From: an uncultured Prevotella sp. | GTDB taxonomy: Bacteria; Bacteroidota; Bacteroidia; Bacteroidales; Bacteroidaceae | DNA: 64,000 nucleotides | NCBI GenBank assembly: GCA_900318625.1 | Contig: ONLG01000002.1 | Location: 11,734 to 75,733, forward strand | Direction of reading: 5' to 3' | In this document: one piece after another, positions 2,428 through 59,520 of the stretch | Layout of the letters: each line of letters opens with the position of its first letter | How positions within the stretch are numbered: the first letter of the stretch is position 1 | Program-made: the position numbers and the translations under genes | The notes under the pieces: generated by a model | Told to the model about the DNA's origin: nothing | The model's input: the letters and a program-made list of their open reading frames with translations, nothing else | Database searches by the model: none

Positions 2428-2989
2428 TTTGTTTTTCTACGGAGATTAGGAGAATTGGAGGTTTTATTGTTTTTCTCCTTCGTCCAGCCCCTCTGACTTA
2501 TACAAATGGTTACGAACTGGCCGTATGCTTCCCTTTAAGTAGCTTGTATTAAAGTTTACTACATATCCCATTTCGCAGTTCATAAGTCTCAGATAGGTGT
2601 AGAGTTGTTTTTCAAATACCTTTTTATATTCTATTACTGACTTTATTTTATTATTATTTTGCGGTCAATTATCAAATCTAAGCGCAGATTGCTGGCTATT
2701 ATCTCACCTTTATAGTAGACTGGCACTTCCACTTGGCTTTCCACTTTGAAGCCGTTCGCCATGAGTTCCTTTGTCAATGCTGCCTCATAGATGCTCTCCA
2801 ACAATCCTGGACCTAACTGATTATATACTTCATACACGCAAGACAGCACTCTGTATGTATATTCTCTGCCCATCTGTAATTCCTTATAAATAAAGATTTA
2901 AGACTCCTAAGCTCCTACTCTCCGCAGAGAAATAACAGCAAGATAAAAAAAAGAAGAACTCCACAGCTCCAAATCTCCGTAGAAACAAA
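2428..2989. repeat. Imperfect ~33-bp inverted repeats bracketing the GxxExxY gene
   Basis: 2428-2463 tttgtttttctacggagattaggagaattggaggtt vs reverse complement of 2957-2989 tttgtttctacggagatttggagctgtggagtt. Third partial copy at 2901-2930. Confidence 0.85.
2464..2873 (-). pseudogene. GxxExxY protein, frameshifted
   Basis: GPGLLESIYE motif. ORF stops at 2643, but a shifted frame continues IKSVIEYKKVFEKQLYTYLRLMNCEMGYVVNF to a stop at 2464. Confidence 0.85.
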
Positions 2990-4524: not shown

Positions 4525-4598
4525 GCAGCAAAGTAATATGGGCCATATTACTGACCAATATGGGCCATATTACTGACCAATATGAGTCATATTACTTT
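4525..4598. repeat. 22-bp palindromic tandem repeat (family B), 3 units
   Basis: aatatgggccatattactgacc x3, beginning gcagcaaagtaatatg. Confidence 0.9.
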
Positions 4599-6200: not shown

Positions 6201-6304
6201 GCAAAGTAATATGAGCCATATTACCTTGCTATAGGGCTTATAGGTCTGGCCCATAAGTCCTATAAGCCTCATAAGCCCTATAAGCCCTTTATGCCCTATT
6301 ACCC
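6201..6304. repeat. Family B palindrome followed by a 9-bp ATAAGCCCN array (family C)
   Basis: gcaaagtaatatgagccatattaccttgc, then atagggcttatagg...ataagtcct ataagcctc ataagccct ataagcc. Confidence 0.85.
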
Positions 6305-18433: not shown

Positions 18434-18562
18434 TAAGGATAAAGGATGAAGGATTAAGGGTGAAGGATGAGGGTGAAGGATGAGGGATACTTAGTGAAGT
18501 GGAATGGTAGGTAGTGTAAATTGAACTGTGTCAAGGCTCTATTTCTTATTCCTTTATCCTTA
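18434..18562. repeat. 7-bp AAGGATG-type array with an inverted partial copy
   Basis: ~8 units at 18435-18489. taaggataaagga (18434) is inverted at 18550-18562. Confidence 0.75.
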
Positions 18563-31202: not shown

Positions 31203-31823
31203 CTATTTGTTGTTGTTTTTTGGTTTTAGTGATGGGAGCTCTTCTTGCCCATTGCTCCCCCCATAGCCATTCCTCCGCAGCCACTCTTTTCGCGCGCGGT
31301 ACATCTCTTCCTTGATGCCGCCTTTCTCTTTGAAGGCACGCTTCTTCCATTCTATGAGCCCACGGATAAGCACATCACACTGGTGGATAAGGGTGATGGC
31401 TATGTTGGCTATCGTCTCGTCTGAACGCTCTTTGATTTTCTCGCGGTAAACCGAAGACTCCAGATGGGCTTTGCAGAAGGCACGGGTCTTTATGCAACGG
31501 GCATCGTCGTACTTCCATTGCTCCAATCCACGGACGCGCAAGTAGTCCTCGTAGTCTAACAACAGCTCATGGAGCGATGCTCGGTTCACATTGGTCAGCT
31601 TCAGCTCCATCTCGCGCGATGTGTTGCCATCGATATTTCCTTCTGCAAGGTTCTGCTTGCCAGAACGGGCAGCCTGCACCATCTGGTCTATGGTGCGATC
31701 GCCGGGCTTCAGATACTTATGAGCGAAATAGTAGGTAACGTCGTAGATACATTCCGCCTTACGGAAAGCCTTCAACGAACGGTAGTCGTTGCCCTGCCAA
31801 AGAAAGTCTTTGTCCTCTTGCAT
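31203..31823 (-). CDS. Four-helix-bundle (IVS/Avd-like) protein with suffix domain
   Basis: DRTIDQMVQAARSGKQNLAEG, ELLLDYEDYL, GGIKEEM. Confidence 0.88.
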   Translation of the reverse strand: MQEDKDFLWQGNDYRSLKAFRKAECIYDVTYYFAHKYLKPGDRTIDQMVQAARSGKQNLAEGNIDGNTSREMELKLTNVNRASLHELLLDYEDYLRVRGLEQWKYDDARCIKTRAFCKAHLESSVYREKIKERSDETIANIAITLIHQCDVLIRGLIEWKKRAFKEKGGIKEEMYRARKEWLRRNGYGGSNGQEELPSLKPKNNNK

Positions 31824-42058: not shown

Positions 42059-43414
42059 TCACTTCGTCACCTGTCGCAGCACGTTCTTGTCGGTCACTAT
42101 CCACAGTTTGTCGTTTTCGTCGGCAAAGGCGGTGAGCACGTTGGGGATGGCATTGAGCTGTGAGGGATAGGCATAGCCGTCGTAGTACTTCCATGTGATG
42201 CCCTGGTCCTTGCTCACGAGCATCGGGGCGAGCGCGCCGGAGCCTGAGATGCCCACAGCCACGAAGTTGCCCTCGACTACTACCACCGACAGCTGCTCCC
42301 AGTTGGGCAGCGCATAGCGCAGGTCGCCTGCCAGATTGGTGAACGACCATCGGCTCTCGAGCTGGTCGAAGCCCGTTCCGCTCAGGCGCGTCCACACTGC
42401 TGCGGGGCTGCTGAAGTCGCGATAGCCTGCCAGCAGCAGGCGCTTCACCTGGCCTTTAGCGTCGAGAGGCTTGCTGACGAGGCTGATGCGGCTTGTGGGA
42501 ATGAGCGACTCGTCGTCGTCGAGAGCTTCGGGCTGCCATGTGGTACCGTCGTTGGCCGACGACATGAGTGTGCCCTGCGCGTCGAGGCCGTAGAGCGTGT
42601 TGCCCACGGCACCTATCAGCCTCACTACGGCAAGGTTCTTGCCAATGATCTGCCCCCGACCTACGGTCACTTTCCTTAGCGTGTTGCCGTCCATCATCCA
42701 CACATCATTGTCTGTGGCGGCAACATTGTCCCAGGCATCAGCCGCAAACTCCTGGTTCACCTCTGTCCAATCGCTGCCTGTGGCGGCATCGGCCACGCAC
42801 ATCAGGGTCTTGTCGGCGAAGCCGGCAAAGACGTACACCTTGCCGCTAACTACCAGACCTTTCAGGTGACTGGCCGAGGCAAAGAGGTCGGTAGGCGCAC
42901 ACTGCTCCCATGCAAGGGTGCCTTCCTTCACCTTTCTCACTCCCACGCGCACCGTGTAGTCGCGGTGGCTCCGTCCGCTCTGGGCTACCACCCTGAGCTT
43001 GCGGTCCTGTGAGAAGTCTATCGAGTCGGTAGACGAATATACCTTGTATGCGTTGGCATCGTCGAGGTTGATGATACGTATCGACGCACCGTTCATTGCA
43101 GAGATAGTAGCAAGTATTTTCGTAGCATCGCAGCCGTATGGCAGCGAGTCGGGATTCCAGATAAGTCTCTTCTGCTGGTCGATGAAGAACTTGTAGTTGC
43201 TTCCTGTTATGTTGACAGTATATACGCTGTCCTGACCTTTCGAGCTCGTGGTGTGTACTTTCTGAGCCACCGTGCCGAGCGTGAAGGCCGTTATTGCTGT
43301 GTCGTCGTCGTAGTTGTAATTGATATCGCTGTCCGATTTGCTGTTACAGGCCACTGCCGTTAGCATCGCTGCCACGATTGCTGCCGTAGCTCCAACTTGC
43401 TTGCGTATTTCCAC
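42059..43414 (-). CDS. Lipoprotein (DUF6242-like)
   Basis: Lipobox AVAC, FFIDQ...NPDSLPYG, DSIDFS. Confidence 0.7.
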   Translation of the reverse strand: MEIRKQVGATAAIVAAMLTAVACNSKSDSDINYNYDDDTAITAFTLGTVAQKVHTTSSKGQDSVYTVNITGSNYKFFIDQQKRLIWNPDSLPYGCDATKILATISAMNGASIRIINLDDANAYKVYSSTDSIDFSQDRKLRVVAQSGRSHRDYTVRVGVRKVKEGTLAWEQCAPTDLFASASHLKGLVVSGKVYVFAGFADKTLMCVADAATGSDWTEVNQEFAADAWDNVAATDNDVWMMDGNTLRKVTVGRGQIIGKNLAVVRLIGAVGNTLYGLDAQGTLMSSANDGTTWQPEALDDDESLIPTSRISLVSKPLDAKGQVKRLLLAGYRDFSSPAAVWTRLSGTGFDQLESRWSFTNLAGDLRYALPNWEQLSVVVVEGNFVAVGISGSGALAPMLVSKDQGITWKYYDGYAYPSQLNAIPNVLTAFADENDKLWIVTDKNVLRQVTK

Positions 43415-43540
43415 TTTCTACTGTAATTTAAAGATATTTGGCTGCAAATTTAGTCAGATTTCATTAAAAAGCGCGCGTTTTCTATTCTTTATTATATAAA
43501 ATAAACATTCCAAGCTACCCTTTTTAAGGTTTATTGCATA

Positions 43541-43611
43541 GTAATATGGGCCATATTGGTAGGTAATATGGGCCATATTGGTAGGTAATATGGGCCATAT
43601 TACTTTGCTGC
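43541..43611. repeat. Family B 22-bp palindromic repeat, 3 units
   Basis: gtaatatgggccatattggtag units, ending catattactttgctgc. Confidence 0.9.
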
Positions 43612-43690
43612 GGGCTAACTATAGACAACAAGCAGCACAGGTCTTACAAGATTTTATTATCTTTGCAGGCGAGAGCAGCAGGCGAGAGCA

Positions 43691-43830
43691 ATAAGGCCAA
43701 TAAGGCCAATAAGGCCAATAAGGCTAATAGGGCTAATAAGGCCAATAGGGCCAATAGGCCCTATAAGCCCTATAAGCCCAATAAGCCCAATAAGCCCAAT
43801 AAGCCCAATAAGCCCCATAAGCCCTATAAG
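43691..43830 (+). repeat. 9-bp tandem array (family C), ~15 units
   Basis: ataaggcca/atagggcta units grading into ataagccca/ataagccct. Confidence 0.95.
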
Positions 43831-43864
43831 AAAAAATTACTAACAACCAAAACGAAAATCTATC

Positions 43865-44437
43865 ATGTCAAGCAATAAGTCTTTCCTTTCTCCGCGCGGC
43901 AATTACAGACATCTGATTGTCTACCAGAAAGCAGAATGTATCTACGATATTACATTCCACTTTGCCCACCGTTTTCTGGAAAAAGGTGACAGGACGATAG
44001 ACCAGATGGTGCAGGCTGCAAGGTCGGGAAAACAGAATATAGCAGAGGGATGTGCCGCAAGCACTACCTCAAGAGAAACTGAAATAAAGCTGGTGAACGT
44101 TGCCAAGGCAAGCCTTCAAGAACTATTGATTGACTACGAGGATTTCCTACGCGTGCGCAACCTATCGCAATGGAGCAGCAACGACCAACGCTATCAACAA
44201 ACCCGGAGCGTTACGGCTAAGCATAATGACTCTGCCTATTATCGGGAAGCTATATCTAAACGCTCTGCCGAAACCGTTGCCAATATTGCAATCACGCTTA
44301 TTCACCAGACCGACACCATGTTAGGCCGGCTGATAGAAACCCTGAAGAAACAATTTATACAGCAAGGTGGCATACGCGAAGAGATGACTCGCGCACGACT
44401 TAGCTACCGCAACAATCTCAGAAAGGACAAGAGCTAA
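43865..44437 (+). CDS. Four-helix-bundle (IVS/Avd-like) protein with suffix domain
   Basis: DRTIDQMVQAARSGKQNIAEG, paralog of 31203-31823. Confidence 0.88.
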   Translation: MSSNKSFLSPRGNYRHLIVYQKAECIYDITFHFAHRFLEKGDRTIDQMVQAARSGKQNIAEGCAASTTSRETEIKLVNVAKASLQELLIDYEDFLRVRNLSQWSSNDQRYQQTRSVTAKHNDSAYYREAISKRSAETVANIAITLIHQTDTMLGRLIETLKKQFIQQGGIREEMTRARLSYRNNLRKDKS

Positions 44438-44550
44438 TAAGGCCAATAGGGCCAATAGGGCTAATAAGTCCCATAAGCCCAATAAGCCCCATAAGCCCTA
44501 TAAGCCCCATAAGCCCCATAAGCCTATAAGCCCCATAAGCCCCATAAGCC
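44437..44550 (+). repeat. 9-bp tandem array (family C), ~13 units
   Basis: Same units, orientation and GG-to-CC gradient as the upstream array. Confidence 0.95.
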
Positions 44551-45537
44551 TTACTTGAAGTTCCTCGACAGCCGCAGGAAAACAAAGAAGAAGAGCGTTC
44601 CGGAGATGAAGCCGAAGATGGCATCGATGAGGTAATGGGCCTGAATGTAGACCGTGGCACAGCACAGCAGCACATAGACAGGCAGCAGCGCGAACAGCAA
44701 CCCGCGGTTACGCGCGTGCCAGAGCAGCCACATCAGCACCGTAGACACTCCCACGTGCGAGCTGGGAAAGGCTGCCGTGGGGCGCTCGCCGGCTTCCTTG
44801 GCTCCCTCGACGAACTGGTAGCACACGCCGTCGACGTAGCCCGGCGAGGGCAGACAGTCCTGATGGTAGTTGAAGTAGTCGTGCATGGGTGGGAAGACGG
44901 CTGCGGCTATCTTCTTCAGACCCACCGCCTTGTAGTAGAACGTAGGTCCGACGACAGGCACAAAGACGAATATCACGTAGAAGAGGAAGAACGATGCCAG
45001 GAGGATAAACGTGGCGCGCTCGAACTCGTGGTACCGCCAGAAGAAGTAGTAGAGCATCACCAAGGCTATCATGGGGTAGTAGGCACCATAGCCGAAGTCG
45101 AAAAGCTCACTGACAATGGGCGATGTCACCTTCTGGCAGAACAGCAGTGCCGGCTGGCAACCGAACCACGACTGCTCGATCTGGGCAAAGATGTGGTCCA
45201 GGTTCTGGAAAGTGCGGTTCAGCTCGTAGGTATCCGGATACCACCAGGCCAGCAGCAGTATCTGCGCCCCTATGCGTGCGAAGCGCGTCAGGGGGCACGG
45301 CACCAGCCTGTAGACAAGCCACAGCGCGGCGGTCATGGCCACCACGCGGGCGCGCCCCATAAGCAGAGCGGTGGGGTTCTCCATCTTTGTGTATAGCAGC
45401 AGCACCAGCACGGTGGTCAGCAGCAGATAGCCCATGGCCACCCATTCCACTGACAGCAGGCCCTTGTGGGGGTTCTTATCGAGGCGGAAGAGCCATCCTA
45501 TGCCCTTGCCGGATTTGCCTTTGTTCTGTTTTCTCAT
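44551..45537 (-). CDS. PAP2-family phosphatase/phosphotransferase
   Basis: AAFPSSHV, QAHYLIDAI, multi-TM. Confidence 0.85.
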   Translation of the reverse strand: MRKQNKGKSGKGIGWLFRLDKNPHKGLLSVEWVAMGYLLLTTVLVLLLYTKMENPTALLMGRARVVAMTAALWLVYRLVPCPLTRFARIGAQILLLAWWYPDTYELNRTFQNLDHIFAQIEQSWFGCQPALLFCQKVTSPIVSELFDFGYGAYYPMIALVMLYYFFWRYHEFERATFILLASFFLFYVIFVFVPVVGPTFYYKAVGLKKIAAAVFPPMHDYFNYHQDCLPSPGYVDGVCYQFVEGAKEAGERPTAAFPSSHVGVSTVLMWLLWHARNRGLLFALLPVYVLLCCATVYIQAHYLIDAIFGFISGTLFFFVFLRLSRNFK

Positions 45538-45632
45538 TGTTCTGTTGATGTTTTTCTGTTCTTTGGGCTGCGCTTGGGGCGCAGCCACCATGATGTTTGC
45601 CAGCTGCCGGCTGTCGCTTGCCGTCTGCCGGC

Positions 45633-46640
45633 CTACAGCCAGCCCTCCTTGAGATACCAGGCTATCGTCTCGTGGGTGCCGCGCTCAAGGTCGTAGTCGG
45701 GCGAGTAGCCCAGCTGCTCGATGGCCGGACTGATGTCGCACCGCCAGTTGCGCTGGCGCAGGATGTTGTACTTGTCGTTGTTCAGTGCCGAGAGCTTGCC
45801 CGTGATGCGGCCTATGTACTCTCCGAAGAAGGTGATAACCCTCAGCACCCACACGGGAGCCTTGATGCGCACCCACCAGGGGCTGCCCAGCTCCTTGTGG
45901 ATAAGGCGGCTGAAGGTGCTGCTCTGGTAGACCTTGCCGTCGCTCAGGAAGTATTTGGCACCCTTGGGCGCACGCTCGATGGCCAGGAAAATGGCTTTCA
46001 CGAGGTCGAGTACATATATGAAGGTGATGTCCTGGCGCTTATATCCCACCGAGAAATCAACGTGGGAGCGTATGCTTCGCGCCATGAGGAAATAGTCTTT
46101 CTCGCGCGGGCCGTAGACGCCGGTGGGCCTAAGCGTGACGCAATGGAACTCGGGATGCTCGCGGCTCACGCCATCGAGAAACTCCTCGGCACGCAGCTTG
46201 CTCTGGCCGTAGGCCGTGTTGGGCTGCGGCTGGTCGGTGGCGCGTATCTCCTCGTAGGGCTGCTGCTCCCTGACAGCTCCGAAAACACTGAGGCTGCTGA
46301 GGTAGACAAAGCGCTCTACCGGCATCTGCAGGCTGAGCAGAGCATTGACGAGATTGCGCGTTCCGTCGGTGTTCACGCGGAAGAAATCCTGTTTGTGAAG
46401 GCATTTCGTTGCCCCGGCAGCATGGACAACATACTGGAACTGGTGGCCGGAAAGCTGCCGGCGCAGCTCCTCGGGCGAACTCAGGTTGAGCTCAATGAAG
46501 TGTATGCGCTCGTCCTGAAGGTATCGGCGCGAGCTGCTCGGGCGAACAGCCGCCCATGTTTCCATTCCACGGCGCAGCGCTTCCTCAACGATAAAGCTGC
46601 CTATGAAGCCGCTGGCACCCGTGATAAGTATCTTTTGCAT
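45633..46640 (-). CDS. NAD-dependent epimerase/dehydratase
   Basis: ITGASGFIG, YGQSK, RPTGVYGP. Confidence 0.9.
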   Translation of the reverse strand: MQKILITGASGFIGSFIVEEALRRGMETWAAVRPSSSRRYLQDERIHFIELNLSSPEELRRQLSGHQFQYVVHAAGATKCLHKQDFFRVNTDGTRNLVNALLSLQMPVERFVYLSSLSVFGAVREQQPYEEIRATDQPQPNTAYGQSKLRAEEFLDGVSREHPEFHCVTLRPTGVYGPREKDYFLMARSIRSHVDFSVGYKRQDITFIYVLDLVKAIFLAIERAPKGAKYFLSDGKVYQSSTFSRLIHKELGSPWWVRIKAPVWVLRVITFFGEYIGRITGKLSALNNDKYNILRQRNWRCDISPAIEQLGYSPDYDLERGTHETIAWYLKEGWL

Positions 46641-59407: not shown

Positions 59408-59520
59408 CCCCACCCCCAACCCCTCCCCAAGGGAGGGGAGGCTGAAAGCTTTCTCATAAGACCTATAAGCCCTATAAGTCCTATAAGCCCCATAAGCCCT
59501 ATAAGCCCTATACACCCTAT
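59408..59520. repeat. Family A element plus family C 9-bp array (~7 units)
   Basis: cccacccccaacccctccccaagggagggg, then ataagccct-type units at 59456-59520. Confidence 0.9.

Follow-up and report, generated by a model that had tools for sequence, protein, structure and literature searches.

A gene for a four-helix-bundle protein stands between two arrays of 9-nt repeats in a 64,000-nt stretch of DNA from an uncultured Prevotella species (hereafter the window), which raises the question of whether the gene and its arrays form a single module and, if so, what the protein does with the repeats and how the module travels. The initial annotation had described a promoter, a 13-bp duplication, approximately 15 repeat units, an AT-richer gene and approximately 13 further units starting at the stop codon. 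Most of this description was confirmed: the duplication is present at 43665–43690, we counted 15 units on the 5′ side and 13 on the 3′ side, and the cassette gene has a GC content of 0.47 (GC3 of 0.51) compared with 0.58 (GC3 of 0.73–0.80) for its neighbours (Table 1). The 3′ array overlaps the stop codon of the cassette gene, and its end coincides with the stop codon of the convergent PAP2 gene. The 13-bp duplication is not a target-site duplication, because it is present at one end only. The promoter stood in part: the motif TATCTTTG, which we take to be the Bacteroidota −7 motif TAnnTTTG, is present at 43658, but no TTTG is seen where the −33 element usually lies, and a scan for sigma-70 promoters and terminators, which does not cover Bacteroidota promoters, returned no matches. 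Sequencing runs containing cassette DNA are mostly labelled bovine gut.

Table 1 Features of the cassette and its surroundings (positions in the window)
Feature	Position	Strand	Remarks
Left neighbour, DUF6242/BamI-like gene, divergent	42059..43414	−	NCBIfam match below cut-off
22-bp tandem repeat, 2.8 copies	43541..43601		Separate dispersed family; adjoins the cassette, probably not part of it
Promoter-like −7 motif TATCTTTG	43658..43665	+	Points toward the gene; retained in the empty allele
13-bp tandem duplication	43665..43690	+	Polymorphic; single copy in the empty allele
5′ array, 15 units CYHATDRG, 9-nt period, 15.8 copies	43689..43830		Spacer G, then C
Segment absent from the empty allele, 800 nt	43722..44521		10 other letters instead
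A-rich leader 5′ of the ATG	43831..43864	+	
Four-helix-bundle suffix-type gene	43865..44437	+	190 aa; Lys22; net charge +9
3′ array, 13 units	44434..44550		Ordered like the 5′ array; 12.7 copies over 44436–44550
Right neighbour, PAP2-family gene, convergent	44551..45591	−	

All units of the two arrays (15 of 15 and 13 of 13) consist of a match to the degenerate palindrome CYHATDRG followed by a single spacer base, and they keep a 9-nt spacing throughout, apart from a single 8-nt step at 44515–44523. Genome-wide, 220 CYHATDRG dyads lie exactly 9 nt from another one, where approximately two would be expected by chance. Both arrays have G spacers in their first half and C spacers thereafter. The polarity and partial complementarity of units described in the initial annotation are therefore real and could be refined to the spacer base alone, as its switch from G to C beside a palindromic core renders GG-type and CC-type units partly complementary. 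Among 133 arrays, 62 run from G to C, 16 are reversed and 55 are flat; because the G-to-C polarity is identical when read on either strand, it does not inform on whether DNA or RNA is the relevant molecule.

The cassette protein passed the curated cut-offs of TIGR04258 (80.2 bits; cut-off 40) and TIGR02436 (33.1 bits; cut-off 24) and scored slightly below that of PF05635 (32.0 bits; cut-off 33.8), whereas Pfam and NCBIfam searches gave no match to an HUH (Y1) or Tyr transposase and sequence searches of the PDB found no relative. Its predicted model is all-helical (pLDDT 88), and structure comparison placed Xcc0516 (2GSC) first (Z 15.6, r.m.s.d. 1.5 over 110 residues), followed by BT_0352 (Z 13.2) and Avd (Z 12.2 and 11.5), with other entries lower except for one unrelated bundle (Z 12.0); the Foldseek E value was only 0.036, at a probability of 1.0. 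As modelled, the protein is a four-helix bundle of the Xcc0516-type fold that is shared with Avd. The rings of Xcc0516 and Avd are pentameric; a homo-oligomer prediction of the cassette protein, run with four copies only, scored 0.04 and was given no weight for or against a ring. Judged from the sequences, the gene is under strong purifying selection (dN/dS approximately 0.03–0.1 in the three pairs with unsaturated dS), and the invariant residues are mostly polar (R43, Q47, Q50, R53, Q57, N58, E61, E86, D90, D93 and N140), with no catalytic motif recognised among them. The four-helix-bundle (S23p) family has long been an orphan, with structures solved since 2006, and is stated in the relevant passage of PMC4990558 to have no known function.

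Homologues were found in 72 of 151 genomes of the genus, 52 of 301 of the phylum and 29 of 351 of the order, as well as in records titled Lentisphaerales, Verrucomicrobiota, Planctomycetaceae and Ignavibacteriota. The phage and viral collections held no match to the cassette gene, and the plasmid collection held one, on a 568-kb replicon. Arrays were called at a fixed periodicity score of at least 14 in the 300 nt preceding the core and the 450 nt following it. After removal of one locus without a hit, seven partial loci, 26 that were redundant at 90% and 10 with short flanks from a first sample of 202, arrays flanked 119 of the 158 non-redundant homologues, on both sides in 42, and 39 had no array over the threshold. 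An array lay beside 6 of 42 control PAP2 genes and 35 of 380 control genes of the source genome, with none on both sides in either set; arrays are thus far commoner beside this family than beside the controls, as the initial annotation had expected. The period was 9 in 138 of 161 arrays and 10 in 19. Arrays lie close to the gene (median of 32 nt before the ATG and 3 nt after the stop), and 3′ arrays are often translated in frame as protein tails. In a second, more distant sample (87 new loci, less two without a hit, seven partial and eight redundant), only 27 of 70 genes had a detected array; by eye, the repeats often appeared to lie inside the gene.

The repeat unit follows the protein lineage. 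At 32 of 42 loci, the best match of the 5′ array among all 3′ arrays was its own partner, and in 32 of 34 comparisons an array was nearer to that of the closest protein in another genome than to that of a paralogue from its own genome (median cosine 0.64 versus 0.06), which bears out the co-variation of unit and protein clade that had been proposed as a check. The more distant two proteins were, the less their arrays resembled each other (Mantel rho −0.36; none of 499 permutations reached so low a value), kin not being independent in this test. The seven TIGR02436 matches of the source genome all have arrays, of different units, and the shorter ones carry inverted 7/8-mer arms. Four short four-helix-bundle genes (contigs C40, C39, C29 and C59) sit in co-oriented operons between inverted arms of approximately 4–5 copies of a 7- or 8-base unit, a copy number near the five protomers of Xcc0516. 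A second suffix-type paralogue (31281–31820, minus strand; 58% identical), which TIGR04258 and a protein search picked up and TIGR02436 missed, retains only vestigial ATGGG/CCCAT repeats in its translated tail.

Within this lineage matching, one residue tracks one base. By eye, the half-site reads N-T-N-R-G across clades, and residue 22, in helix 1, was the protein column most closely associated with the variable base (MI 0.46; next column 0.22). At all 89 loci without TC(A/G)G-dominated arrays this residue is lysine, Lys22 thus accompanying the lack of C at the variable base, whereas at 15 loci from 5–6 separate lineages, in which TC(A/G)G makes up at least 41%, it is Val, Ile, Leu or Thr; the line for dominance was set at 50%, and two of these 15 fell below it. 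Both traits change five times on the tree; of the five independent pairs counted over all branches, only three fall on branches with good support (sign test, p 0.25). The rule was found post hoc. A prediction was recorded before new loci were retrieved: 14 of the 16 fitted, comprising all 12 with Lys or Arg and two of the four others, and the two misfits both came from one Leu22 clade with a different unit. A looser, later count found TCNGA pairs at 9 or 18 nt in 7 of 26 non-Lys loci and in none of 44 Lys/Arg loci. In the source genome, which has Lys22, the variable base is C in 4 of 440 half-sites within arrays compared with 807 of 2,896 isolated ones, counted on both strands, the sites being related by descent. 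Other unit changes were each confined to a single clade, without convergence. Direct recognition would predict repeated co-change of residue and base, which simple co-inheritance would not; we regard the link as suggestive, not conclusive.

Contact between protein and repeat has a structural precedent in Avd, all five protomers of which contact an RNA stem-loop and hold flipped-out bases in inter-protomer crevices, according to the portion of bioRxiv 10.1101/2023.10.23.563531 that describes the complex. From the recurrent co-change at residue 22, together with the reading of flipped-out bases by a protein of common fold, we infer that the cassette protein quite probably binds its own repeats directly and in a sequence-specific manner, with double-stranded DNA favoured by a narrow margin over RNA as the ligand.

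Comparison of sites across genomes suggested that the gene and arrays travel together. The 94 genes with long flanks occupy 63 sites; both neighbours differ in 36 of 54 close protein pairs, and 19 of these 36, with arrays, share units (median 0.54). The cassette of one other genome (G013), arrays included, aligns at 72% over 805 nt in a different context. The site between deoC and a polyprenyl synthetase gene is filled in 4 of 30 genomes and in the rest is bare or holds terminator-like hairpins or solo arrays; a near sister of a filled genome carries a solo array there that matches both flanks of the filled one, and 4 of the 30 show gaps of 9–13 nt. Solo hairpins of 8-mer and 7-mer arrays after deoC at two loci (L323 and L328) suggest that different subfamilies have used this site repeatedly. 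At seven sites where other genomes carry a cassette, the source genome has neither a cassette nor an array; together with the 9–13-nt gaps at deoC, this means that a pre-existing array target is not evident. Taking these comparisons together, we consider that the module very probably moves as a unit. Among 119 neighbouring ORFs at 60 sites, no transposase, integrase or reverse transcriptase was found (E 1e-8), in agreement with the initial description of the cassette as transposase-free. Type I restriction genes recur among these ORFs, and cassettes are repeatedly found in type I restriction-modification operons (L047, L053, L054, L214, L226, L237, L266 and L308).

The locus itself exists in a second form. 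We compared the assembled contigs of eight sequencing runs with positions 42400–45800 and found two contigs, one of 211 nt from DNA run X11 (depth 5.3, with 64 nt on its short side) and one of 2,313 nt from RNA run X20 of a different study (depth 16), that join 43721 to 44522 through the same ten letters and lack the 13-bp duplication. Both include the promoter linker (43601–43690), which is unique in the genome, and so represent the same locus, in a strain approximately 97% identical; the presence of this form in a DNA run identifies it as an allele rather than a product of RNA processing. The filled allele was found in runs X2 and X7, with a single 702-nt contig, and X11 contains pieces of both alleles. 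Empty alleles, on whose existence the initial annotation had staked the cassette idea, thus occur in runs of two studies. With 800 nt absent, one array of approximately eight units remains, with no duplicated target. Its promoter now faces the end of the convergent gene, and such a motif stands beside only 2 of 47 array loci, which makes it likelier that the empty allele arose by loss than that the filled one arose by gain. Because its middle units match none in the filled allele, it does not represent a newly formed recombinant. No circle joints were seen in the contigs of the eight runs. Joints from 43606 to 444xx were rejected as empty alleles, as they derive from other composite-repeat loci, and low gene cover in the RNA runs was rejected as a measure of expression, which contigs cannot rank. 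No sister-species empty allele was available, there being no close species among 400 genomes of the genus; as, in addition, none of 116 PAP2 loci had a DUF6242 or cassette gene nearby, the DUF6242–PAP2 junction is lineage-specific.

The cassette’s 9-base unit is also dispersed through the source genome, at 47 loci. Of these, 36 are no more than 250 nt from a 22-bp repeat of unrelated sequence; most solo arrays, which the initial annotation had placed with the cassette class, are therefore parts of composite repeats and not necessarily footprints of lost genes. Two such solo arrays occur in the window, at 6249–6299 and 59456–59520. The 22-bp repeat, which has a palindromic core and occupies 113 strand-and-bin positions genome-wide, recurs in the window at 4535–4596 and frequently makes up a composite intergenic element together with 9-mer arrays and C/G-rich hairpins. 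A solo 7-base array (AAGGATG-type) at 18435–18488 is perhaps a remnant of a short-type cassette. Among other genomes of the genus, the unit pattern occurs in 24 of 150, being present in 13 of 23 with a homologue of at least 58% identity compared with 11 of 127 others; some of these matches are the cassette’s own flanks, and several array-rich but incomplete genomes lack such a homologue. One genome (G149) has 731 three-unit pattern matches, far above any other searched, and encodes a 60% identical homologue with a matching unit.

The initial annotation had further assigned a GxxExxY cassette to the same class. This frameshifted GxxExxY-family gene (2533–2861, minus strand), located between miaB-like and ABC-transporter genes and flanked by inverted GGAG/CTCC-rich repeats, resembles the cassette in layout, but it belongs to a different protein family and has different flanks, as judged by inspection only. 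A truncated Y1 (RAYT-like) transposase elsewhere in the source genome (G000:C41:79700-80200) has palindromic flanks of its own, unrelated to the 9-mers; neither this fragment nor the one reverse transcriptase match of the genome is linked to arrays.

The reading that we favour, and hold to be reasonably likely, is that of a four-helix-bundle protein that binds the repeats flanking its own gene, the gene and arrays forming one module. As an oligomer, the protein would bind the 9-base palindromic repeats and bring the two same-direction arrays together; host recombination would then excise the gene with one array, leaving a solo array, and the reverse reaction at another array would relocate the module, with no requirement for a transposase. 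This recombination route is the weakest part of the reading, and we put it forward as doubtful. The full proposal, a transposase-free mobile module whose ring-forming protein uses a residue-to-base code and seeds or captures arrays and moves between them, is likewise tentative.

An element acting at the level of RNA would account for some of the same observations: an Avd-like ring would bind both hairpins of the transcript, a host nuclease would excise the RNA in the manner of rRNA intervening sequences and a reverse transcriptase encoded elsewhere would copy it to new sites. Both arrays lie inside the predicted transcript and fold, as do arrays of the family at large (z < −2 in 95 of 132); Avd, on which a reverse transcriptase depends, binds an RNA stem-loop, members of the family lie within rRNA intervening sequences that are excised by RNase III (as described in part of PMC4990558), and the shorter 7/8-mer paralogues of the source genome have inverted arms, as such elements do. 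At the cassette, the 5′ array folds well on either strand (z −4.5 on the plus strand and −6.6 on the minus strand), but the arrays are direct repeats and the sense 3′ array folds weakly (z −1.6). Folding of the whole cassette on the sense strand gave z −1.8; each array is self-complementary, and the palindromic units would permit cross-pairing. The base rule, moreover, holds on both strands, yet the pairing of distant units is imperfect. The absence of reverse transcriptases from the 119 neighbouring ORFs, the lack of an array at the genome’s one match and the absence of a target-site duplication also count against this explanation, which we judge unlikely. The greater stability of the antisense fold in 100 of 132 arrays was rejected as evidence, because of the A- and C-rich composition of the sense strands. 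An Rfam search of the locus gave seven weak hairpin matches, all far under the gathering score.

We give a similarly low probability to a domesticated host factor that would bind its flanking arrays only to regulate itself and the dispersed arrays to organise DNA or tune transcripts, with relocation and loss incidental to repeat recombination. Strong purifying selection would suit such a factor, as would long residence at some sites such as deoC, absence from the phage and viral collections with one 568-kb replicon among plasmids, and the higher frequency of the unit in genomes with a homologue of at least 58% identity (13 of 23 versus 11 of 127). Set against this are its patchy presence in 72 of 151 genomes of the genus, the different units of paralogues within one genome, its dispensability in a related strain and the spread of 94 genes over 63 sites. 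That the arrays are host minisatellites or REP-like repeats gathering in spacers, with the gene an ordinary neighbour, could draw on the 47 loci of the unit and the 36 that adjoin the 22-bp repeat, but it is largely refuted and highly improbable, given that the unit tracks the protein and not the genome, that both-side arrays occur in 0 of 380 control genes and that arrays hug the gene to within a few tens of nucleotides.

A cognate repeat and a residue that tracks one of its bases make the function of an orphan family directly testable. If the favoured module does move via its arrays, it would exemplify a way for genes to move that needs no transposase, and it would account for a large group of scattered short repeats (47 loci in the source genome and 731 matches in one relative), as well as the low-complexity protein tails that arise from arrays translated in frame. 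The transposase-free module, if true, would provide a function for the 23S-IVS/Avd-like family and an origin for unexplained 7–10-base intergenic repeats of bacteria. The literature searched, which left subscription papers and bioRxiv supplements outside its scope, yielded no description of these arrays with this family.

Among known systems, REP/REPIN sequences with their RAYT genes offer a parallel in layout, in that a gene lies between cognate short palindromes, further copies of which are scattered genome-wide, and protein and repeat types are paired. The cassette likewise has cognate palindromes at its flanks and dispersed through the genome, but its protein is all-helical and has no HUH/Tyr transposase match, and its repeats are tandem 9-mers in contrast to the 20–40-nt hairpins of REP sequences. 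An IS element or MITE differs from the cassette, which has neither a transposase nor a target-site duplication. The intervening sequences of 23S rRNA (S23p/PF05635; Coxiella and Leptospira) share the protein family and fold, and the sections of PMC4990558 devoted to them describe an ORF between self-complementary flanks, sporadic occurrence and a role in mobility that has only been proposed; one passage of one paper also places 23S_rRNA_IVP genes in cas loci. The cassette, by contrast, lies between two protein genes with no rRNA match in Rfam, is flanked by same-orientation tandem 9-base palindromes rather than one terminal stem, adds the TIGR04258 suffix domain to its protein and occupies many chromosomal sites. 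Diversity-generating retroelements share the fold through Avd (Z 11.5–12.2), whose base-specific contacts with nucleic acid recur from protomer to protomer, whereas the neighbours of the cassette are DUF6242 and PAP2 genes with no reverse transcriptase, none being found at 60 sites, and no template/variable repeat pair was seen at the cassette. The BrickBuilt MITE of Porphyromonas gingivalis also consists of intergenic, dispersed tandem repeats in Bacteroidales, but as characterised in the excerpted text of PMC4596501 its units are 23 nt long, it carries terminal inverted repeats and it contains no gene, and the consensus quoted there differs from both the 9-mer and the 22-mer. The cassette thus departs from each known system compared in the feature that defines that system, combining a REP/RAYT-like architecture with a protein of the IVS/Avd fold.
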